Source: Candidatus Gottesmanbacteria bacterium
GTDB taxonomy: Bacteria > Patescibacteriota > Microgenomatia > 2-02-FULL-39-11
Reading direction: 5' to 3'
DNA: 64,000 nt
Assembly: GCA_016195685.1 (NCBI GenBank)
Contig: JACPZE010000003.1
Coordinates: forward strand, 899 to 64,898
Shown here: piece by piece, positions 6,426 through 61,767 of the stretch
How positions within the stretch are numbered: the first letter of the stretch is position 1
Layout of the letters: every line of letters begins with the position of its first letter
Translations under genes and position numbers: made by a program
The notes under the pieces: generated by a model
The model's input: the letters and a program-made list of their open reading frames with translations, nothing else
What the model was told of the DNA's origin: nothing
The model's database searches: none

Positions 6426-7970
6426 TTATAAGTTTCCCAATATGTACTCCAGAAGAGTTCTTACCCCAAAACCTACCCCTCCGATAGAAGAAAGAGGAGT
6501 ATCGCGTTCGGCGAAAGCAGGACCAGCTATATCCAGATGTACCCAAGGCGTATCCCCAACGAACTCAGCCAAAAATAAAGCGGCGGTAATGGCTCCACCG
6601 TATCTGCCTGTCTGGATGTTTTTGACGTCTGCAATGTGGCTCTTGATAAGGGATTTATAGTCGGAAAAAAGCGGCATGTTCCATACCCATTCGCCTACAT
6701 TTTCTCCTGATTTACTTATAGAATCTATAAGTTTGGTATTATTCCCCCACATACCGGCAATATCATCACCTAAAGCAACCATGCACGCACCCGTCAGTGT
6801 AGCTAAATCTATGATTTCATCAGGTTTCTCTTTCAAATTGGCATAAGATATGGCATCGGCTAAAGTAAGTCTTCCTTCAGCATCGGTATTGAGTACTTCA
6901 ATCGTCTTTCCGTTCATGGCTTTTAGTATGTCTCCGGGTTTTAATGCTTTTCCAGAAGGCATATTTTCACAAGCGGCTATAAGACCCACTACCTCAATAA
7001 TAGGATTTAAAAGTGTGATGGCATGAAATACTGCTAAAATTGCAGCTGCTCCGGCCATATCCAGTTTCATCGTTTCCATGTGCTCGGCTGACTTAAGAGA
7101 AAGTCCGCCGGTATCAAAAGTGATCCCTTTACCTATTAACACTATTTTTTTCGACGATCCGGCAGGTTTATACGATAAATGGATAAATTTTGGCGGTTTA
7201 TCACTGCCCGATGCTACCCCCAGAAATGAATTCATTCCTAATTTGGCTATTTCATCCTTGTCCATAATTTTTACTTTCACGGTGTTTTTACTTTCCTTTG
7301 CAATATTTAAAGCAACATCAGCTAAATAACTAGGTGAGGTAATTTCAGGAGGTTCATTTATAAGATCACGGGCGAAAACAGTTGAATTGGAAAATATTTC
7401 ACCCTTCCGCATTCCTTCTTCACCCAAAGTTAATTTGGGTGCGGAAAGAGATAATAGGACTTCTTCGATAGGGCGATTATTTTTCTGTTCCTCCTCACCT
7501 TTGTATTTGATAAATTTATATGAGGAAAGATTAACTGCCTCTACAACGGATTGAATGACTCTTTCCACCGGATATTTTTTCATCCAATAATCATCTACTA
7601 TTAAGGCTATTTTGGCCGGTTTAGTATCTATAACGCGTTTGATGGAAGTTGCAATCAATTTGTATAGTTTGTAGATATCAAATTCCTCTTTTTTACCTAT
7701 CCCAAACAAAAAAAACTTATACGCTGCTAAATCACCTTTGGGATAAACAAACAGTGTTTGACTCTCTTTCCCTTTGAATTCTTCCTTTTCGGCAAGAGTT
7801 TTTAATTCATCTAAAAAAGCCTTGGGGAGCGACGCGACATTTGAAAATTCTCCTTCCCAACAGTATTTTATAAGCACATCGACTTCTAGTTTTTCTGGAT
7901 TTGTAGGTTTGAGAAGAAATTTCATTTGTTTGACTAATACGAGTGTACAAAATATAATGATTGGAGTCAA
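6426..7970 (-). CDS. pepA: leucyl aminopeptidase, peptidase M17
   Basis: M17 signature NTDAEGRLTLADA and metal-binding region around VGKGITFDTGG. Confidence 0.85.
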   Translation of the reverse strand: MTPIIIFCTLVLVKQMKFLLKPTNPEKLEVDVLIKYCWEGEFSNVASLPKAFLDELKTLAEKEEFKGKESQTLFVYPKGDLAAYKFFLFGIGKKEEFDIYKLYKLIATSIKRVIDTKPAKIALIVDDYWMKKYPVERVIQSVVEAVNLSSYKFIKYKGEEEQKNNRPIEEVLLSLSAPKLTLGEEGMRKGEIFSNSTVFARDLINEPPEITSPSYLADVALNIAKESKNTVKVKIMDKDEIAKLGMNSFLGVASGSDKPPKFIHLSYKPAGSSKKIVLIGKGITFDTGGLSLKSAEHMETMKLDMAGAAAILAVFHAITLLNPIIEVVGLIAACENMPSGKALKPGDILKAMNGKTIEVLNTDAEGRLTLADAISYANLKEKPDEIIDLATLTGACMVALGDDIAGMWGNNTKLIDSISKSGENVGEWVWNMPLFSDYKSLIKSHIADVKNIQTGRYGGAITAALFLAEFVGDTPWVHLDIAGPAFAERDTPLSSIGGVGFGVRTLLEYILGNL

Positions 7971-52364: not shown

Positions 52365-52928
52365 TTATATCTCACTTAGCTCCTTCTCCTTATTCTCCCT
52401 CATCATGTCTATCTCTGCCATAAATTCATCTGTAAATGTCTGTATCTCCTTTTCCAGATGTTTTTTCTCATCCTCTCCTAATTCCTTAGCTTCAAATTTA
52501 TGCTTCAGTTGTACCATGGACTCATGCCTGACTTGTCTCACCATCACCCGTCCTCCTTCAACTTTAGCATGGGCTAGCTTTATGTATTCCTGGCGCCTAT
52601 CATCCGTAAGGGGCGGAATACTGATCCGAAGGATATTGCCATCGGAAGCGGCAGAATAACCTAAATTAGCCGTATTGATGCTACGCTCGATATCCCGAAT
52701 GACTGTCGGATCAAAGGGGGCGATGACTAGCATCCTCGGACCATCGGTTGTGATGGTGGCCATTTCTTTAAGTCTTAGATGTTGGGTATTATCGTAAGCA
52801 GCTATTACTAAATTCTCAATAAGGGCAGCAGTGGCCCGGCCTGTTCTTATGGTACCCAAGTCTTCGGATAGGACTTTCATGGCCTTGACCATTTTATCTT
52901 TTGTCGAAGCTAGAAACTGTTGATCCAT
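52365..52928 (-). CDS. frr: ribosome recycling factor
   Basis: RRF pattern ...DDRRQEYIKLAHAKVEGGRVMVRQVRHE. Confidence 0.9.
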   Translation of the reverse strand: MDQQFLASTKDKMVKAMKVLSEDLGTIRTGRATAALIENLVIAAYDNTQHLRLKEMATITTDGPRMLVIAPFDPTVIRDIERSINTANLGYSAASDGNILRISIPPLTDDRRQEYIKLAHAKVEGGRVMVRQVRHESMVQLKHKFEAKELGEDEKKHLEKEIQTFTDEFMAEIDMMRENKEKELSEI

Positions 52929-52977
52929 GTGTCATTAGGATAACAAGAAACAGTATGTAAAACAAGTAGAAATTATT

Positions 52978-53348
52978 TGTCATTGCGAGCGAAGCGAAGC
53001 AATCTCTATAATAAAATTAGTGAAAAAACAATATTTTGTTTATATTGCTACGAATACAACGAATCGTGTTCTTTATACAGGAGTCACTAATAACTTAATT
53101 AAAAGAAATTTCCAACATAAAAAACAGTTTATATCCAGTTTTACCTCAAAATATAAAATTAATAAACTCGTTTATTATGAAATATTCGATGATATCAATG
53201 AAGCAATTAAAAGAGAAAAACAAATTAAAGGAGGATCTCGTAAAAAGAAAATAGATTTAATAAGAAACCTGAATCCTGGTTTTATTGATTTATATGAAGA
53301 AATTATTAAGTAAAGATTGCTTCGTCGCTAACGCTCCTCGCAATGACA
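52978..53348 (+). mobile_element. compact GIY-YIG element bounded by imperfect terminal inverted repeats
   Basis: left end tgtcattgcgagcgaagcgaagcaatct (52978-53005); right end agattgcttcgtcgctaacgctcctcgcaatgaca (53314-53348); outer 12 nt and inner 11 nt are exact inverted complements. Confidence 0.5.
53020..53313 (+). CDS. small GIY-YIG nuclease-family protein (97 aa)
   Basis: GIY-YIG core YFVYIATNTTNRVLYTGVTNNLIKRNFQH and conserved downstream E/R (YYEIFDDINEAIKREKQIK). Confidence 0.7.
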   Translation: MKKQYFVYIATNTTNRVLYTGVTNNLIKRNFQHKKQFISSFTSKYKINKLVYYEIFDDINEAIKREKQIKGGSRKKKIDLIRNLNPGFIDLYEEIIK

Positions 53349-53373
53349 TAAATGAATTAGTTGAATTAGTTTA

Positions 53374-55563
53374 ATGTATACTTATATTATGAAGGAAGAA
53401 AAAGTAGTATTGGAGCTTCGGACTCCCAAAACAGCCGAGGAAACACCTGAACATATGCAGCAGGTTTTCTCCGCGCTTTTTTCCGGCGGACACATCCCCC
53501 ATTGGAAAAGGCTTTGGATAAAAGTACGCACCCTTTCTTTTGAAATCGCATCGTTTAACCAAAGCATACATTTCTATACCGTTATCCCTAGGCCTTTTAA
53601 GACCTTCATCGAAAGCCAGCTCACCAGCCAGTATCCCAAGATCCTTATATCCGAAACGCCGGATTACATGGCAAATATCACCAAAAACAGATTTTTAGCC
53701 ATAGGAAATCTGCAACAAGCCGCCCCATTTTATTACCCTATAAAAACTCATGCGGATTTTAAAGAAATTGATTCCATATCTTCTATTCTGGGTGTACTCT
53801 CCAAATTCAGCCCGGAGGAAAGCTGCGTCATACAGATGGTGATAGAACCTCCGCATTTCAACTGGCAAGGTATGATACAACGGATGGTAGACCGAGGCAT
53901 TCCCGATCCTACTACCACGGCACCCAACCGGACCAAATCATTCCCTCATGCAAGTTTGATCGAGCAGAAAGTCAAACAAAGTGGTTATCGTACCTACATC
54001 AGAATCATGGTAGGAGCAGAAGATAACAAAAAAGCCCTATCCCTTCTTTTTAATATCGCCGGATCGTATGGAGCCTTTGCCTTGGGTGAAGGCAATAGAC
54101 TTGTTCTTCGTCGTCCCAGGCTTTTTTGGAAAAAAGTCATCTACAATAGAATACTGAAGCGCGAAAAAAGCCATTATCCCAGACACCAGGTATTAAATAC
54201 AGGCGAACTGGCTACCATCTGGCATCCGCCCACGATGCTACTTGCTGGGATAAAAAATATCGTCTGGGGCAGATCACTCGTGGGAGAACCTCCCCAAAAT
54301 CTGCCTGTTGCCGCAAATATCACAGAAATTGAAAAAGGGGATATAAATTTCATCGCCCGGGCTGAATTTAAAAATACCCTCACCACTTTTGGTATAAAAA
54401 GACCGGACAGAAGAAAACACATTTACATAATAGGGAAAACCGGTACCGGTAAATCTACCATGATCGCCAATATGGCTATAAACGACATGAGGAATCGGGA
54501 AGGTCTAGCTGTCATAGACCCTCATGGAGACCTATCTGACATACTTTTAAATTATATTCCCTCATATAGGATAAACGATGTCATATATTTGGAACCTTTT
54601 GATGTGGAACATCCCTTTTGGATGAACCCGTTGGAAGTGAAAAATCCCATCCACAAAGAATTGGTCACCTCCGGAATCGTATCGATCTTTTCCAAGCTTT
54701 ATGCCAAATCCTGGGGTCCCAGGCTTGAGTATATACTGCGGAATGTCATCCTTACTCTTATGGATTATCCGGATGCCACACTGGTTATGGCTTTGGATCT
54801 TTTATCTGACCAGAATTTCCGCCAGGGAGTACTAAATAAAGTAGAAAATAAGATCCTGCAGAATTTTTGGCACAATGAATTTGACAAAATGCACCCCAGG
54901 CTTAAAAGCGAGGCTATAGCTCCAATTCAAAATAAAGTAGGCCAGTTTGTACAATCTCCCACTATACGTCAAATCATCGGACATCCTACATCTACCATAG
55001 ACCTGGAGGAAGTGATGAACCAGGGGAAAATACTGATACTGAATCTTGCACAGGGTAAATTGGGTGAAGACAACGCAGCGCTTTTGGGTGCCATGTTTAT
55101 CACCAAAATGCAATTGGCAGCCATGAACAGGGTAAATTTGCCGGAGGAACAGAGGCGTGATTTCTACCTTTATGTAGATGAGTTTCAAAACTTCGCTACC
55201 ACATCTTTTATAAAAATATTATCTGAGGCGCGGAAATACCGCCTTGATCTTATCATGGCCAACCAATACATCGGACAAGTGGAGGAAGAAGTGCAAAAAG
55301 CTATTTTTGGCAATGCCGGATCTCTTATTTCTTTTGTCATCGGCGCCCAGGATGCTAGTGCTCTGACTAAGGAATTCGGCCAGTGGTATAAAGAAGAAGA
55401 CCTTGTAAATTTGGGTTCTTATCAGATAATCATCAAACTGGCTATAGATAACCTGACTTCACTTCCATTTCACGCACTCACTTTGCCACTTCCTAAATCA
55501 AAGAATCAAAACCGCGATAAAGTCGTGCGCCTCTCCAAAGAAAGATACACTAAGAAGCCTTAG
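53374..55563 (+). CDS. FtsK/HerA/TraG-VirD4-superfamily P-loop ATPase (DUF87/T4CP-like), 729 aa
   Basis: Walker A IIGKTGTGKST followed by AVIDPHGDL; Walker B LYVDEFQNF; downstream RKYRLDLIMANQYIGQ arginine-finger/Q motif region; non-TM 340-aa N-terminal domain. Confidence 0.6.
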   Translation: MYTYIMKEEKVVLELRTPKTAEETPEHMQQVFSALFSGGHIPHWKRLWIKVRTLSFEIASFNQSIHFYTVIPRPFKTFIESQLTSQYPKILISETPDYMANITKNRFLAIGNLQQAAPFYYPIKTHADFKEIDSISSILGVLSKFSPEESCVIQMVIEPPHFNWQGMIQRMVDRGIPDPTTTAPNRTKSFPHASLIEQKVKQSGYRTYIRIMVGAEDNKKALSLLFNIAGSYGAFALGEGNRLVLRRPRLFWKKVIYNRILKREKSHYPRHQVLNTGELATIWHPPTMLLAGIKNIVWGRSLVGEPPQNLPVAANITEIEKGDINFIARAEFKNTLTTFGIKRPDRRKHIYIIGKTGTGKSTMIANMAINDMRNREGLAVIDPHGDLSDILLNYIPSYRINDVIYLEPFDVEHPFWMNPLEVKNPIHKELVTSGIVSIFSKLYAKSWGPRLEYILRNVILTLMDYPDATLVMALDLLSDQNFRQGVLNKVENKILQNFWHNEFDKMHPRLKSEAIAPIQNKVGQFVQSPTIRQIIGHPTSTIDLEEVMNQGKILILNLAQGKLGEDNAALLGAMFITKMQLAAMNRVNLPEEQRRDFYLYVDEFQNFATTSFIKILSEARKYRLDLIMANQYIGQVEEEVQKAIFGNAGSLISFVIGAQDASALTKEFGQWYKEEDLVNLGSYQIIIKLAIDNLTSLPFHALTLPLPKSKNQNRDKVVRLSKERYTKKP

Positions 55564-55647
55564 GCTATAAATACACATCCTTATACATGTTTTAATACAT
55601 ATCTCAATACTTGACAGAATATGTATTTTGTGATATGTTAGCTTTGT

Positions 55648-55902
55648 ATGGACACGATAATTATTCCCATAACGGATTTTTTAAGGAAAGCCGGAGAATA
55701 CGCGGATAGACTTCCTTCACTTGAGAAAATCATCATAACCAGAGGCGGAAGACCGTTTGCTGAATTAAAGGCATCTCCCCAGGAAAAAAATAGAAAACTC
55801 ATAGAACTTATAAAAAGTTTTAACGGTAAACTTTTTGAAAATGAAGAAGTATGGAAAGCAGTATATACCAGAAGAAATAGAAAAAAGCCCATTACAATAT
55901 AA
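55648..55902 (+). CDS. Phd/YefM-family antitoxin
   Basis: 84 aa; IIPITDFLRKAGEYADR...IIITRGGRPFAELKA typical Phd/YefM. Confidence 0.55.
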   Translation: MDTIIIPITDFLRKAGEYADRLPSLEKIIITRGGRPFAELKASPQEKNRKLIELIKSFNGKLFENEEVWKAVYTRRNRKKPITI

Positions 55903-56262
55903 ATGAATTTTTTAATTGACACCTCTATACTTATAGAAATGCTTAGGAAAAATAAAGATGTTTTGGATTTTCTAGCTAATCATCTGGAAGATAGGTTTCT
56001 CACAAGCAGTATATGTGAGGCAGAAATTTGGGAAGGAGTTTATAGAGAAAAACCGATTAATTTTGTAAAAAGAAAGAAAAATGTTGAAGTTTTATTGGAA
56101 TCCCTGACAGGGACCATTACTTTTGATTCAAATCAGGCACAGATTGCAGGACAAATAAGATCTTCCCTTTCCTTAAAGGGAGAATTGACGGGTGACCTGG
56201 ATATTTTGATAGCCGCATCTGCTGTAACAAACGATGCAACCCTATATTTAATTTACCCATAA
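55903..56262 (+). CDS. VapC-type PIN-domain toxin (C-terminus looks truncated)
   Basis: MNFLIDTSILIE PIN N-terminus; immediately follows antitoxin; ends ...TNDATLYLIYP without the usual terminal acidic motif. Confidence 0.6.
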   Translation: MNFLIDTSILIEMLRKNKDVLDFLANHLEDRFLTSSICEAEIWEGVYREKPINFVKRKKNVEVLLESLTGTITFDSNQAQIAGQIRSSLSLKGELTGDLDILIAASAVTNDATLYLIYP

Positions 56263-56290
56263 AAAAGAGGTATCAAAACCAATCCTTTTA

Positions 56291-56623
56291 TCACCTCGTC
56301 TGGTGAATGATGTCTACTCCTTCTTCTACATTTTTCACTTTATCACCAGGTGCTAAAAAACTTCTGCTAGGCCCAACGAGAATTTGTTTTTCATCTGATA
56401 TTCCGTATCCTATATCGCATATATTATTTGGGTCAGTACCAGGTAGATGAACCATTACATCCACGTGTAAAATACGCCCACTTGAAAGCTTCCCCGAAAA
56501 ACTACTATTGCCTGTAATTTGTCCATCATCGACGATAGGATTATTCTTTCCATGATCGACAAAAATTAATCGACCATGACAACGTGGTATACCAAAAGTA
56601 TATTTGATACCTTCTCTAAACAT
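56291..56623 (-). pseudogene. N-terminally truncated dCTP deaminase/dUTPase-family gene fragment
   Basis: 110 aa matching only the C-terminal two thirds of Dcd (SSGRILHVDVMVHLPGTDPNN...FLAPGDKV versus [23 protein letters not shown]...ALRPGMLIG). Confidence 0.4.
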
Positions 56624-56701
56624 ATTAAATATTATACTAAATCTATCCTATAGTTTCAACAAAACTTGACTTATACTATAGGTTATGATATAAATTGCAG
56701 T

Positions 56702-56800
56702 CTATGCGGTATCAACAGGCCGTTTTTATTGTGGACCAATTTTTTGTGAATATCACCTTTATAAAAGGCAAAGCTTCCCTTTTGCGGGAAGATTTTTGCT
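56702..56800 (+). ncRNA. candidate ~100-nt small RNA (promoter plus intrinsic terminator, no ORF)
   Basis: TTGACT(56666-56671)-17 nt-TATAAA then about 100 nt ending in hairpin cttccc-ttttgc-gggaag (56774-56791) followed by ATTTTTGCTGAATTTTG. Confidence 0.3.
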
Positions 56801-57116
56801 GAATTTTGTTGTAAGTTCCGGTCCTAAATTGTGGGTATTTGCACTCACAACCAAAAACTGAAACTTACGACTTCGGAGCAAACGCTTCGAATAGCACTTT
56901 AACAAGGGAAATAGTGAAATTTATACCTCTAAATTATCTGGTTGTAGAGCTTCACATGGCAGAAAAATCTTTTCTACCAACTGTAGCTTTACAATCGGAT
57001 GAAAAAGGGTAAATAATGTTTGGTAAATATAGTTAATATTTAAGGATAGCGCTGTTGTTATAGAAAACATAATCTCAGTGACAGAAGATCTAAATCCGAC
57101 GTCACAAGAGGTTAAA

Positions 57117-58007
57117 ATGTTTAAAAGCAAAAGCACGCGGATCGCGGTAATTCTCGCGATCATCATGTTCGTCACGACTTTCGCTTTTACCGCGAACGTC
57201 GCAAGCGCACAGGGTCCCACACCTACGAAAAGCGTTGGTAGCAACAACGTTAATCAGGACTGTTTCGACTTGAAAAGTCCGTCTGGACCCCGAACAAAAC
57301 CTGGGGGGAAAGATAGCGCCGGGAACACCTGCGTCGCTGGCTTGCTCTGGACTGACCCCCAAGGCCGGTCGCTCAACGTCCCATACAACGGATACGCACT
57401 CAGTGCATCTAGCACAACGACGGGGACGATTACGCCAGGTGTGTCACTCACGAACACGGCTCCCTCCGACAATCTGGCAGCACCAACGGGTTCGACAAGA
57501 CCGAAGTATAATGTGTGCACGTTCAACGAGGACGGCACAAAGTATACGGTCGAACCAGATGCAGCCCCGGCAGTGGTCCACGCGCCTAACGGTACAATCG
57601 TTACTTTGGCGTGCACTTGGGATGATTCTCGCGGGGCAGTACCGGATCGGTCGGAAAAAACAGCGCTCGAAGTACAAATCGAAACCTGGCGGAGTGTCCT
57701 CTGGACAGGGATCACGATGATCCTCTCCGTTGTGTTTGCGATTGGCGCGCTGGTAGCAGCTGGGTTCATCGCGGTAGCGATGGTGCATGGCGACTTGTTC
57801 CGATCGGTGCGTGACTTCTGCTCTTCATGCACATCCCTTTGGTGGGGGTGGCGGCGGAGCACCCGGTGGTGGAGAACACGCTGCGAAAGAAAACCACTAG
57901 AAGCAGGCTCCTCAATGAGTCGACTTCGCTGTACGAAAGGTACCAGAACGAAAGATAAGGGGCCGCCGGGGAGTGGAGAAGCTGTTTTGTGGACCAACAC
58001 AAAATAA
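57117..58007 (+). CDS. GC-rich (foreign-composition) secreted protein with C-terminal TM anchor
   Basis: signal peptide MFKSKSTRIAVILAIIMFVTTFAFTANVASAQ; Thr/Ser/Pro-rich ectodomain with Cys; TM helix ITMILSVVFAIGALVAAGFIAVAMV; third-codon positions mostly G/C, unlike every other gene. Confidence 0.55.
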   Translation: MFKSKSTRIAVILAIIMFVTTFAFTANVASAQGPTPTKSVGSNNVNQDCFDLKSPSGPRTKPGGKDSAGNTCVAGLLWTDPQGRSLNVPYNGYALSASSTTTGTITPGVSLTNTAPSDNLAAPTGSTRPKYNVCTFNEDGTKYTVEPDAAPAVVHAPNGTIVTLACTWDDSRGAVPDRSEKTALEVQIETWRSVLWTGITMILSVVFAIGALVAAGFIAVAMVHGDLFRSVRDFCSSCTSLWWGWRRSTRWWRTRCERKPLEAGSSMSRLRCTKGTRTKDKGPPGSGEAVLWTNTK

Positions 58008-58176
58008 ATGCGGTTCACCGCAGCTTCCTCCGCCTTCGGCGCGACATCACAACCAAACATCATCACTATTTCCCTTATCTTTCAAATCTTCAGAATTCTG
58101 GAAGTTTGGGAGATAGGACAGAACAATTTCTAATTACTGATTTTTAATTTCTAATAAATTTAGATTGGAAATTGGG

Positions 58177-58422
58177 TTAATTTTGGGGTACGATTTCGAG
58201 GCGTTCTTCTATAAGTTCAACTCTCTTCCGGAGATCGAGATACTCTTTGTCGAAAAAATCAGCGATTGTACTTATATCTTTACGGATTTTTGTATTATCT
58301 TTTTTTATCACCTTCACATCTGATTTTAAAGCATTCAAATCAGTTTTTATGGGATGAAGTTCTTCTTTAATAAATTTCATTAAAGTATTTCTAATAGATA
58401 GAAGATCAATTTTTGTCAACAT
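58177..58422 (-). CDS. small coiled-coil hypothetical protein (81 aa)
   Basis: ORF only; its promoter and first 11 codons are duplicated 580 bp away. Confidence 0.4.
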   Translation of the reverse strand: MLTKIDLLSIRNTLMKFIKEELHPIKTDLNALKSDVKVIKKDNTKIRKDISTIADFFDKEYLDLRKRVELIEERLEIVPQN

Positions 58423-58511
58423 GAAAAGATATTACCAAGTGAAAATTACGAAGTCAATTACTAATCAGAAGAATTGCATTTGACAAAAAAGTTAAAAGCA
58501 GGAAAATAGAG

Positions 58512-58949
58512 GTGCTTATGACCGATCATAGAATTGATGCGGATAGAATCGGTGAAGTAGCAGCTAAATACCGGTCGAAATTGGATTATCATCAAAGAGA
58601 CGTTGTTCAGAGTTTCGATATTTTTGTTTACAGAAATGCTTCTAGAATAATTAATAACCCCAGAGGTGACCAATCTCCGGTAGGTTTGAATTGGGCACAT
58701 CAATCTGAAGCAAAAACGACCGCAGATACATTAAGAGCAGATTTACAAAGAGCTCGAGTTTTTAAAAAAATTCCACTAAGTGCACTAATTTATTTTACCG
58801 CCGGAGATATAATCGCATACCAACAAGAAAATATAAGAGATCCCAGAAGAAGGGAATATCCCCATGTCATTTTGCAAAGTGTTGCTTTTGATGTAGTTGG
58901 AGTAATTTTTCCTAATAATGGATTGAGAAGAGATATACCGAATTGGTAA
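58512..58949 (+). CDS. hypothetical protein (145 aa) between duplicated segments
   Basis: ORF only; no domain recognised. Confidence 0.3.
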   Translation: MLMTDHRIDADRIGEVAAKYRSKLDYHQRDVVQSFDIFVYRNASRIINNPRGDQSPVGLNWAHQSEAKTTADTLRADLQRARVFKKIPLSALIYFTAGDIIAYQQENIRDPRRREYPHVILQSVAFDVVGVIFPNNGLRRDIPNW

Positions 58950-58974
58950 GGTGAATCCTTATTGTATTTCTGAT

Positions 58975-59038
58975 AGATAAAAGATCGATTTTTATCAGCA
59001 TGAGGAAATATTATCAAGTGAAAATTGTGAAGTCAATA
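58975..59038 (-). repeat. second copy of a ~65-nt promoter/5'-CDS segment (first copy 58397-58460)
   Basis: about 85 % identity; copy 2 encodes MLIKIDLLSIRNT then stops after 29 codons (copy 1 begins MLTKIDLLSIRNT). Confidence 0.6.
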
Positions 59039-59099
59039 AGTTTGTTAGAAAAAAAGAAGAAAAATTATTTCCCACCTAATTGATAGCGAATGAAGTAGA

Positions 59100-60080
59100 C
59101 TAGTGTCCCCTATTTATCCAGTAATTTTCATCCACTTTACCGTTTGCCAAATCATTCCAATAATCTTCCCCCATTAAATTTCCGCTTCTTTCTTTCATAC
59201 GCTTTTTCATGAGGGATATTTTTGCATATAATATGCTGTCAGATTGAGCAATATTCATAATATCCTGATACTTATTCATCAACCACCATGCAACAGTTGC
59301 CTGATCTTCATCAGCATCTACAGTTCCGTACCGTTCAGCAAATCCTTGCGGTCTTGAGTTAATATCAAAATATTTCCAGGTTCTTCTATCAAAAAGATTA
59401 AAAGCTGGCAGTGGCCACTGATATTCATATAACTCTGCACCTTCCGGACCATTCAAATTTACCCATTCAGCATCCCCGATTGGAAATTTTTGCTCCCTTT
59501 TGATTGCAAGATGATTTAACTCATGATGAAAACCCCACGGCTCACCATTATCATCCAGCTCTACAAAAAATGAGTTTTCGATCGGACATGCTTCTGAACG
59601 GGAAGAACATGCCTTTCCACCCCAATCGTTACCATCTTGCTTCAATTTCTTAATTAACCTAATTTCATCTAATTTAGTGTACCTTATATATGTGGGAGGA
59701 TATTTGGCCAGTTCCTTCTTAAGGCTATAAATCGCGTTTAATTCCTCACAGGCCGTAAGTTTTTGGCCTGAAAATTTTGCCCTTTTTTCTTCATCAGTCA
59801 AATCTCCAGAATAGATATATACACCATAACGTACCTTCAATTCTGCTTTCAATTGCGCAATAGCTTTATTTTGACTTTCACCATCTGCTGGACAACCTAA
59901 ATCTGAAAATGCAGCTGTTTGAACCCCAACCGTAGAAGAATTAATACTTGCATAAGTGGGAGTAGTGGTGGTAAAACCTCGTTGCGTTCCTGTACCAGCT
60001 AATTTTTGTAACGCGTCAATTGAATCTACTATAGGTTTCGCACCAAATACATATGCGGCGGCTTGTGCGCTATTACGCAA
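59100..60080 (-). CDS. HExxH-motif putative zinc metallopeptidase (C-terminal part of a split gene)
   Basis: FHHELNHLAI motif; begins at TTG directly after an in-frame stop; overlaps upstream ORF in another frame. Confidence 0.4.
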   Translation of the reverse strand: MRNSAQAAAYVFGAKPIVDSIDALQKLAGTGTQRGFTTTTPTYASINSSTVGVQTAAFSDLGCPADGESQNKAIAQLKAELKVRYGVYIYSGDLTDEEKRAKFSGQKLTACEELNAIYSLKKELAKYPPTYIRYTKLDEIRLIKKLKQDGNDWGGKACSSRSEACPIENSFFVELDDNGEPWGFHHELNHLAIKREQKFPIGDAEWVNLNGPEGAELYEYQWPLPAFNLFDRRTWKYFDINSRPQGFAERYGTVDADEDQATVAWWLMNKYQDIMNIAQSDSILYAKISLMKKRMKERSGNLMGEDYWNDLANGKVDENYWINRGH

Positions 60081-60406
60081 AAATCTCGTCTAGTAATAGC
60101 ATTTCCTGTAAATTGATGATTGACTAGTATAGCATGTTCATCCGATACTGCCACCGAATGAACCGTTTCTTTTTCTGGATTACCTATCACCCTGCGAATA
60201 AACCCCCTTCTTGGCAGTTGAGATGAGGCTGTTAAGATATTCTCTTTTGGAAATACAATACTTGATTGAGCTGTTTGGGCGGGACTGACCGGAACTAAAT
60301 GTGTCTCAGGTACAGGAATTAATGCCGTTGACTTTGGATCAGCTACAACAAAATCCGGCATTCTTTTTACCGATGTAAAAGTATCCATTTCCTGTCTGAT
60401 TGACAT
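60029..60406 (-). CDS. N-terminal part of the split HExxH gene (125 aa)
   Basis: 52-nt out-of-frame overlap with 59100..60080 around a T5 homopolymer. Confidence 0.35.
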   Translation of the reverse strand: MSIRQEMDTFTSVKRMPDFVVADPKSTALIPVPETHLVPVSPAQTAQSSIVFPKENILTASSQLPRRGFIRRVIGNPEKETVHSVAVSDEHAILVNHQFTGNAITRRDFCVIAHKPPHMYLVRNL

Positions 60407-60489
60407 AACTATAGGATATTATAGACTAAAAACCGTGCAGGTTCAAGTTTCTATAGGGATTTAAATTATTTAGTATTCTAGAGGAATAT

Positions 60490-60948
60490 TTACTTTTCTC
60501 CAAGCTGGAAGCGGATGAAGCGAGCTACGGTGATATTTTCTCCAAGTTTACCAATCACTTGCTTTACTAATCTTTCAATTGTCAATCCCGGATCACGGAT
60601 ATATTCTTGGGCAAGAAGTGCTTTCACATCTTTCGGATTCATAGAGGCTATTTGAAGACAAAGTTCGTGGGCGAGATTTTTAAAATCATCGGTTCGGGCG
60701 ACAAAATCTGTTTCACAAAGTAGTTCTACCAATACTCCCACTTTCCCCCCGGGATGGACATAACTGTCTACAATACCAGCTTTGGTCTCTCGGCCTACTT
60801 TTTTCTCCGATTTCTCTATCCCCCATTTGGCTAAAAGTGCTTCAGCCTTTTTCTCATCTCCTTTGGTTTCTTCCAAAGCGCGCCTGCAATCCATGATACC
60901 GGCGCCTGTTTTTTCCCGGAGTTTTTTGATTTGAGCAATTGTGGACAT
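60490..60948 (-). CDS. tsf: elongation factor Ts (short form)
   Basis: N-terminal UBA-like IAQIKKLREKTGAGIMDCRRALEETKGD; 152 aa. Confidence 0.85.
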   Translation of the reverse strand: MSTIAQIKKLREKTGAGIMDCRRALEETKGDEKKAEALLAKWGIEKSEKKVGRETKAGIVDSYVHPGGKVGVLVELLCETDFVARTDDFKNLAHELCLQIASMNPKDVKALLAQEYIRDPGLTIERLVKQVIGKLGENITVARFIRFQLGEK

Positions 60949-60960
60949 AAGTTTCTAAAG

Positions 60961-61767
60961 TTACTTAAGTTTCTTAGGTTTTGATTTTTTCTGCGGTTTC
61001 TCTTCTTTCTTTGCTTCAATTTTTTCTTCTGTTTTTTTCGGTAATTCTTTCTCTTTCGGTTCTGAAGTGTCTTCTTTTTTCTCACCAAGTTTTTTGCCTT
61101 CCAGATATGCATCTGCCAAGTAATTTACGATAAATTGGATGCTTCCAACTGCATCATCGTTGGCAGGTATGGGATAGTCTACATTATTCGGATTGGTGTT
61201 AGTGTCTATAATGGCCACTATCGGAATTTTACATTTGACGGCTTCCCGAAGAGATGATATCTCCCTTTTGATATCTATGATGAATATGGCTTCTGGGACT
61301 CTGGTGAGTTCTTTTACACCGGTATATACAGACTCCAGCTTACGGAGATCTTTCTCCAATTTCACTTGTTCATGCTTGGGGAATTTTTTCCAGATACCTC
61401 CATCCAGCTCTTTCCTCATCCTGTTTGCCTTGTCTATATTTTTCTTGACTTCTTCCCAATTGGTCAGAAATCCACCAATCCAACGGTTTGTGAGATAGAA
61501 AACAACTGCTCTTTTGGCAGCATCTGAAACAATGCCCTTTGATTGCCTTTTGGTAGCTACAAAAAGAACAACTTTACCTGTCTGGCCGAGATTTTTGAGA
61601 TATTCTCCAGCATTTTTCAGCCCGTCGCGGGTCTTCACCAAATCTATGATGTGTATCCCTTCACGCTCACCAAAGATAAATTCAGCCGCTTTAGGATGCC
61701 ACCTCTCTACCTTGTGGCCAAAATGACAACCTGCTTCCAATAGATCTTTCAGTGATACGTCTTTCAT
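60961..61767 (-). CDS. rpsB: 30S ribosomal protein S2 with Lys/Glu-rich C-terminal extension
   Basis: LLEAGCHFGHKVERWHPK... S2 core; tail KKEDTSEPKEKELPKKTEEK. Confidence 0.9.
   Translation of the reverse strand: MKDVSLKDLLEAGCHFGHKVERWHPKAAEFIFGEREGIHIIDLVKTRDGLKNAGEYLKNLGQTGKVVLFVATKRQSKGIVSDAAKRAVVFYLTNRWIGGFLTNWEEVKKNIDKANRMRKELDGGIWKKFPKHEQVKLEKDLRKLESVYTGVKELTRVPEAIFIIDIKREISSLREAVKCKIPIVAIIDTNTNPNNVDYPIPANDDAVGSIQFIVNYLADAYLEGKKLGEKKEDTSEPKEKELPKKTEEKIEAKKEEKPQKKSKPKKLK

Follow-up and report, generated by a model that had tools for sequence, protein, structure and literature searches.

Capsule, O-antigen, pilin and adhesin loci of bacteria are replaced wholesale by homologous recombination between strains. 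Phages and integrative and conjugative elements carry morons, autonomous single-gene cassettes which have their own promoter and terminator and a deviant composition and which often encode membrane or exclusion proteins. In Borrelia, the vls cassettes have a GC content of ~ 49% in genomes of 28.6% GC, inverted repeats are present at the expression site and strong selection for the composition is said to act (PMC11499132). Here, we analysed a stretch of 64,000 nucleotides of contig JACPZE010000003.1 of a Candidatus Gottesmanbacteria bacterium (referred to as the window), in which a single gene (57117-58007, plus strand) stands in an island of GC-rich DNA within an AT-rich genome. The gene encodes a predicted extracytoplasmic membrane protein of an orphan family, and replacement of its alleles by recombination at a variable surface-protein locus is the reading that fits best and that we hold with moderate confidence. 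Like the surface loci that are swapped wholesale, it has identical flanks, anciently diverged alleles and a breakpoint in a conserved edge segment; unlike these, it is a single small gene of unknown family in a member of the Candidate Phyla Radiation (CPR), and only the right breakpoint was observed. With vls it has in common that a putative variable surface gene lies ~ 20 GC points above an AT-rich genome, and a conserved hairpin and a bracketing inverted repeat may be counterparts of the vls expression-site repeats, but its GC skew is 0.01–0.04 instead of ~ 0.5, there is no silent array within 64 kb, the variation is unconfined and the protein is unrelated, being of a predicted type I plus three-transmembrane (TM) form and not a lipoprotein, which makes vls an analogy only. 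Morons resemble it as single genes bracketed by hairpins, of deviant composition, encoding a small exported membrane protein and lying next to a DNA-translocase gene, but here no prophage or complete conjugative element surrounds the gene and promoter and terminators are consensus-level predictions.

The family comprises three sequences only. An exhaustive phmmer search of 1.84 billion representative proteins with the window protein gave a sole match (E 9e-14), P0008, a complete protein of 265 aa encoded on the 1.2-kb contig L006 (SRR22387949) with 34% aa identity to the window protein. The third member was reached through the neighbouring 81-aa protein and is located on L002, a 1.2-kb Logan contig from SRR12113409, which encodes the homologue in the window's sense orientation with 47% aa identity over 95 aligned codons. 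The L002 match to the window spans 58597 to 57945: over 58015-58597 there was no difference at any of 583 positions, all 15 differences were found at or left of 58014, and further left L002, still with 51–57% GC, could not be aligned as DNA. Contigs of two sister runs, L001 and L003, were 99.6–99.9% identical to the window outside the island. L006 has an upstream region of 34% GC followed by the homologue with 50% GC. Exact-protein look-ups with VapB, VapC, HY029_00960 and VirD4 (two start codons) gave no Logan contig over the left junction of the window strain. All known members thus adjoin AT-rich DNA at apparently the same locus, and the variation between the alleles is spread along the whole gene and not gathered in discrete variable regions. 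A recently acquired gene would be expected to be missing from this position in close relatives, but a homologous GC-rich gene is present there in L002, where the flank is identical, and in L006, where the upstream block and the hairpin described below are shared. The condition under which the first-pass annotation would have been refuted applies by half: the gene does sit at the same position in relatives, but its codon usage is non-native there too. Identical flanks, alleles diverged like distant orthologues and a breakpoint in the 3' untranslated region (3' UTR) together point to replacement of whole alleles. L001 (SRR12113415) ends at 58043, 17 bp inside the GC-rich block. Since a branch from the L002 allele is expected at 58015, the end at 58042/58043 may mark the divergence of a third variant (a further allele or an unoccupied site); a simple drop in coverage is an alternative.

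No further relative was found. The window protein and then a two-sequence profile gave no match in a word-indexed search of 5.8 billion protein clusters, nor did a profile of all three sequences give anything further there; degenerate-pattern scans of GTDB genomes, JGI metagenomes and IMG/VR returned no relative, a tblastn search of P0008 against phages and plasmids no match and an exact 20-mer of the conserved 3' UTR no match in IMG/VR. Using neighbours as anchors, namely the 326-aa protein in GTDB genomes and the VirD4-like protein in IMG/VR, nothing was found either. Neither gene nor protein gave anything above threshold in Pfam, NCBIfam, PHROGs, PADLOC, PDB sequences or Rfam.

The sense ORF (open reading frame) is a real gene. 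Identity at codon positions 1, 2 and 3 amounted to 0.71, 0.71 and 0.37 between window and L002 and to 0.51, 0.52 and 0.25 between window and L006, with a random expectation of 0.26 for position 3. Positions 1 and 2 are conserved while position 3 is at or near random, which argues for purifying selection on the protein with synonymous sites that are saturated or nearly so. Four cysteines, all of which are kept in P0008, a CxWDD motif and a long TM helix with H-x-D-x-F at its end are common to the three proteins and conserved across the family alignment. In the window protein, hydropathy revealed a long hydrophobic segment at residues 191–228, and cleavage of the signal peptide was placed after ASA, before Q, by the AxA rule alone. 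In the intact members, represented by P0008 and, for the C-terminal part, by L002, a signal peptide is followed by an ectodomain of ~ 130–160 aa, three hydrophobic helices and a tail rich in His, Asp, Glu and Gly. An AlphaFold2 (AF2) model of P0008, built from a 2-sequence alignment, was poor (mean predicted local distance difference test score, pLDDT, 58) and its beta strands (pLDDT 65–79) were confined to the two cysteine modules. The signal peptide and the Thr/Ser/Pro-rich, cysteine-containing ectodomain of the first-pass annotation stand, but its single C-terminal TM anchor does not, the ancestral anchor having three TM helices. From this architecture we infer the topology of the protein and its exposure at the surface.

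The allele of the window is decayed at its 3' end. Past codon 233 (nucleotide 57815, after MVHGDLFRSVRD), ~ 130 bp are absent that code for a loop and TM2 in both relatives, and TM2 and most of TM3 are gone. A TM3 remnant, LFMHIPLVGVA, lies in the frame of 57701, and the frame of 57700 gives the ancestral tail GGGEHAAKENH, which is closed by a stop codon at 57898-57900. Over its final 63 codons (57816-58004), the sense ORF is read out of frame until the stop at 58005-58007 is reached, and the resulting tail is rich in W, R and C. Since GC-rich DNA is poor in stop codons, reading it in the wrong frame yields a spurious tail of 63 residues, and the ORF, which had been taken as protein to its end, is frameshifted and not real protein over this part. 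The window copy would therewith be a decayed allele that encodes at best a single-pass protein ending in nonsense sequence. In a collection of 15 billion proteins, the neighbours MBI3379304, -305, -307 and -309 are present but the sense protein is not. Consecutive accessions imply that one coding sequence, MBI3379306.1 (HY029_00965 by inference), is annotated between 56623 and 58177, but none of 19 candidate combinations of ORF and start codon, taken from both strands of the island and its immediate surroundings, matched it; the public annotation at the island may use the wrong frame or strand. The deposited ORF has 63 spurious C-terminal residues, and the true protein is seemingly missing from the public collections searched.

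The GC content, determined over 900 bp at a time, reached a maximum of 0.563 at 57151, whereas the remainder of the 64 kb had a mean of 0.374 (sd 0.025) and a maximum of 0.449. With 56% GC, 57130-58060 lies ~ 7 sd above the rest of the window and is the sole such island in 64 kb, every other 1-kb bin having at most 0.43; in 50-bp steps, GC goes up from ~ 57126 and down past ~ 58060. GC at codon positions 1, 2 and 3 (GC1, GC2, GC3) was 0.53, 0.54 and 0.61 in the in-frame part of the sense ORF, compared to means of 0.47, 0.34 and 0.31 (sd of GC3 0.045) in 22 host ORFs, and CpG observed/expected was 1.2 in the island gene versus 0.86 in the host. A GC-rich block with G/C-ending codons in an AT-rich genome, as first noticed, is thereby confirmed (56% versus 37.4% GC, GC3 0.61 versus 0.31). 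That the block equals exactly one ORF is true only in that the ORF is there, because the GC-rich DNA continues ~ 55 bp beyond its stop; ~ 160 bp of the block are 3' untranslated in the intact relatives. The sense ORF prefers CTC, ACG, GCG, GTC and ATC. These codons are avoided throughout the host, including its rpsB, tsf and frr genes, in which TTT, AAT, GAT, ACA/ACC and GCC/GCT are favoured. All three alleles (window, L002, L006) are GC-rich with GC3 values of 0.61, 0.58 and 0.55 and a GC skew on the coding strand of 0.01–0.04, and they share preferences for CTC, ACG, GCG, GTC, ATC, TTC and AAC and, in the two-fold purine-ending sets, for AAA, GAA and CAA. The atypical composition extends beyond amino-acid content to synonymous sites and to the 3' untranslated part. 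Translational selection as source of the GC3 bias was rejected, since other codons are preferred in these host genes (rpsB, tsf, frr) and the high GC content extends to the untranslated 3' part, which indicates a regional property of the DNA.

The gene is accompanied by conserved flanking elements (Table 1). A long hairpin upstream has a counterpart in L006, with a blastn match of E 3.6e-5 and 3 of 21 consensus pairs changed on both sides between the two. Since only ~ 44 nt separate it from the ATG in L006, the hairpin probably belongs to the 5' leader. Hairpin, gene and 3' UTR are bracketed by a perfect 14-nt inverted repeat (AAGGGAAATAGTGA); perfect inverted repeats of at least 14 nt within 2.5 kb occur only 4 times in the whole window, the other three pairs at 6832/9057, 16040/16512 and 43554/43634. 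A promoter-like site was seen at 56988-57017, and it is, like the terminators, a consensus-level match only. In the minimum free energy (MFE) fold of the gene RNA, 57957-57985 pairs with 58018-58045 in a helix of ~ 27 bp in the 3' UTR, of which the 3' arm is identical in L002 and the 5' arm, in the patchy transition zone, is partly conserved. An element of the miniature inverted-repeat transposable element (MITE) or insertion sequence (IS) type bounded by the 14-nt repeat was rejected as unsupported, because the identity between L002 and the window includes the right arm and the adjoining 45 bp on its inner side, but not the gene body. Rejected were also an integron cassette, as the hairpins lack RYYYAAC/GTTRRRY core sites (by eye), and an 11-nt direct repeat (TCACAACCAAA, 56845 and 58047), which is one of several chance-level repeats.

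In the allele replacement that we favour, 57117-58060 would be a self-contained cassette of leader hairpin, gene and GC-rich 3' UTR, encoding an extracytoplasmic, disulfide-stabilised and membrane-anchored protein of the orphan family, whose intact form would comprise signal peptide, two Cys-pair beta modules, a Thr/Ser/Pro linker, three TM helices and a cytoplasmic tail rich in His and acidic residues. The locus would be a hot spot of replacement, at which homologous recombination exchanges entire alleles and one of the crossovers falls in the conserved GC-rich 3' UTR. This exchange would most likely be driven by frequency-dependent selection, acting on a surface-exposed protein that serves, for instance, as phage receptor, partner-cell adhesin or exclusion determinant. 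The alleles may have diverged in an unsampled gene pool of ~ 50–56% GC with a shared, non-host codon usage and have been imported from there, and a gene from such a pool would stand out in a genome of 37% GC. The data show the composition, the coding nature of the gene, the architecture of the family, the divergence of alleles beside an identical flank and the 3' decay, whereas mechanism, selective cause and pool are inferred. Several points weigh against this explanation. The family consists of three sequences, two of them on contigs of ~ 1.2 kb; L002 covers the right junction only and L006 mainly the left one. Furthermore, L002 stems from a simplified de Bruijn graph, in which bubble popping could have substituted the flank of the dominant strain, and the window allele could owe its frameshifts to errors in the consensus of a strain mixture in the metagenome-assembled genome (MAG). 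Finally, no member of the putative GC-rich pool was found outside AT-rich flanks, and the explanation therefore does not account for the origin of the composition. CPR bacteria, or Patescibacteria, are thought to live attached to other cells, and their surface proteins for attachment or phage contact are largely unknown; anciently diverged alleles on otherwise identical genomes in one aquifer population make this gene a candidate for frequency-dependent surface selection. GC-rich alleles within AT-rich genomes, with no GC-rich donor found, are also of interest for the question of what determines the local base composition of reduced, AT-biased genomes.

The first-pass annotation had favoured recent horizontal gene transfer (HGT) from a high-GC donor, plausibly a host if the bacterium is an episymbiont; this would be a single event that has not yet been ameliorated. 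The foreign GC3 and codon usage, which include the untranslated 3' part, the CpG ratio and the location in a mobility-type islet speak for it, and HGT-derived ORFan islets indeed resemble the locus in the sharp discontinuity of GC and codon usage, in being an accessory or mobility block in a housekeeping cluster and in having no database family. They differ from it in that here no donor lineage was found, the gene is present at the same place in relatives and all alleles are atypical and very divergent. The collections searched (1.84 billion proteins, 5.8 billion clusters, GTDB, JGI, IMG/VR, phages, plasmids) contained no relative from a high-GC organism, a phage or a plasmid, all three members lie beside AT-rich DNA at apparently the same locus, and alleles that have diverged to saturation cannot be explained by a single recent event. 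Of that proposal, the foreign-looking composition and the accessory region stand, but donor and single recent acquisition are not supported, and we consider it unlikely. An import could be dispensed with if the GC-richness of a resident variation locus were maintained, by selection or because GC-biased gene conversion acts at a hot spot of recombination. Despite synonymous saturation, all three members have a high GC content within AT-rich flanks, from which the equilibrium GC of the locus appears to differ from that of the genome; the conserved hairpin beside the gene and the 14-nt repeat that brackets it would suit such a mechanism, and Borrelia vls is a precedent (PMC11499132). But the skew on the coding strand is far from the ~ 0.52 of vls, and silent cassettes, paralogues and template repeats are absent within 64 kb: tblastn and blastn with the gene matched only the gene itself, giving neither a second copy nor vls-type silent cassettes, and for a diversity-generating retroelement no template-repeat copy was found in the window and no reverse transcriptase among the ORFs scanned, which were part of the window's ORFs. 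The spread of the variation along the whole gene also counts against both vls-like and retroelement-driven variation. The reported effects of GC-biased gene conversion in bacteria are far below 30 GC3 points. A resident cassette in which hairpin- and repeat-assisted recombination or gene conversion keeps GC up, in a way analogous to vls but mechanistically distinct from it, is quite unlikely in our view; if true, no antigenic-variation-like system would have been described before in an ultra-small episymbiont.

Two further readings can be weighed on the structure of the locus itself. A chimeric assembly, in which foreign GC-rich DNA was joined into the Gottesmanbacteria contig, would explain the abrupt compositional edges and the end of L001 inside the island. 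But the ribosome binding site, the start codon (ATG) and the first few codons after it are located in AT-rich DNA, from which the reading frame continues into the GC-rich body; L002 provides an independent crossing of the right boundary, and L006, from a different project, has AT-rich upstream DNA with the same motifs and then the GC-rich homologue. The chimeric join considered in the first-pass annotation is effectively excluded by these two independent assemblies, which show the layout of AT-rich flank and GC-rich gene on the right (L002) and on the left (L006). Just as improbable is that the island is a structured non-coding RNA or that the antisense strand carries the true gene, the sense ORF being incidental. 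In AT-rich genomes, a high GC content is typical of structured RNAs, a z of -3.5 (20 shuffles) was obtained for the 944-nt fold, and the antisense ORF has the more usual pattern of GC1 > GC2 and a start context of AAGGG...ATG. However, Rfam gave no match at gathering score and nothing relevant at E <= 10, cysteines, signal peptide and TM helices are conserved at the protein level, and the antisense frame is interrupted in both relatives. The antisense ORF, whose third codon position coincides with that of the sense frame and which is not intact in L002 or L006, is thus a compositional shadow, in agreement with its earlier description as an artefact.

Table 1. Coordinates of the gene, its flanking elements and the surrounding islet in the window.
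Feature	Position	Strand	Basis or remark
Sense ORF	57117-58007	+	Shine-Dalgarno-like AAGAGG at 57106-57111
Start codon and predicted Sec signal peptide, residues 1-31	57117-57209	+	sequence, hydropathy; equivalent N-terminus in P0008
Ectodomain with two Cys-pair beta modules (C49/C72, C134/C166) and Thr/Ser/Pro-rich linker	57210-57686	+	alignment, AF2
TM1 and conserved juxtamembrane motif MVHGDLFRSVRD; last in-frame homologous part of the window allele	57687-57815	+	hydropathy, alignment
Degenerate 3' end	57816-58007	+	three-frame translation, DNA alignment with L002 and L006, tail composition
GC-rich (55%) 3' untranslated segment	57901-58060	+	58015-58060 identical in L002; transition to allele-specific at 57945-58014
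Upstream block CTTTAACAAGGGAAATAGTGAAA, given as CTTTAACAAGGGAAA... in the shared 23-nt stretch	56897-56919	+	L006 alignment; 23-nt blastn match at 87%
Left arm of perfect 14-nt inverted repeat, inside the upstream block conserved in L006	56904-56917	+	AAGGGAAATAGTGA
Long hairpin	56934-57002	+	MFE -35.3 kcal/mol, z -8.7; L006 counterpart z -6.3
Terminator-like hairpin and T-run	58022-58009	-	would serve the convergent 81-aa gene
Right arm of 14-nt inverted repeat	58063-58076	-	AAGGGAAATAGTGA on the minus strand; also in L001, L002
AT-rich hairpin of ~ 20 bp, candidate terminator with weak T-run	58074-58117	+	fold of 58000-58125, z -4.5; palindrome
Antisense 270-aa ORF, compositional shadow	57254-58066	-	only 74 aa in L002; antisense ORFs of <= 112 aa in L006
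Accessory islet, ~ 7.5 kb	52929-60489		between frr (52365-52928, -) and tsf (60490-60948, -); tsf-rpsB 60490-61767
VirD4/TraD-like (HerA-like) ATPase	53374-55563	+	
VapB-like 84-aa ORF and VapC PIN toxin	55648-56262	+	
HY029_00960	56291-56623	-	
81-aa coiled-coil ORF	downstream, convergent	-	minor head protein model only, at 1.4e-4
143-aa ORF	in the islet	+	
326-aa HExxH protein	59100-60080	-	
125-aa ORF	60029-60406	-	no Pfam match

The genes tsf and frr are normally separated only by pyrH. Given this usual order of tsf-pyrH-frr, the 7.5-kb block between them is an accessory islet in a conserved housekeeping cluster; pyrH was not seen between frr and tsf-rpsB. The contents of the islet were determined by Pfam, NCBIfam and PHROG scans, in which several of its ORFs had no family, and NCBI names by exact look-ups, and with a VirD4-like ATPase and VapBC between tsf and frr the gene does lie in an accessory, mobility-type region, as had been supposed. 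The ATPase matched phrog_5156 (unknown function) at 5e-65 and, weakly and at the level of the P-loop, terminase models; its GC3 of 0.445 is ~ 3 sd above the host mean. It is probably the remnant of a mobile element. No other genes of a type IV secretion system were seen among the ORFs scanned, and the ORFs next to the gene, when scanned against PHROGs, could be assigned no specific structural function of phages that would indicate a surrounding prophage.

Distant relatives of the VirD4-like ATPase are found in Bacillus phage G (23% identity). Relatives of VapC from the same 90%-identity cluster are encoded on two contigs from other samples (L004 and L005) in a different gene context, on L004 beside MazE-like and Fic genes, which suggests that the toxin-antitoxin module moves independently. 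The 326-aa protein has an HHELNH motif in its translation and a sub-threshold match to the LIC13305 lipoprotein family. All differences between the MAG and the two Logan contigs of this population, 8 in L001 and 5 in L003, are found at 59054-60078, within its gene or at the edge of it, with none in the remaining ~ 1–2.5 kb covered by each contig, and the protein may be a second variable, possibly exported, protein of the islet.

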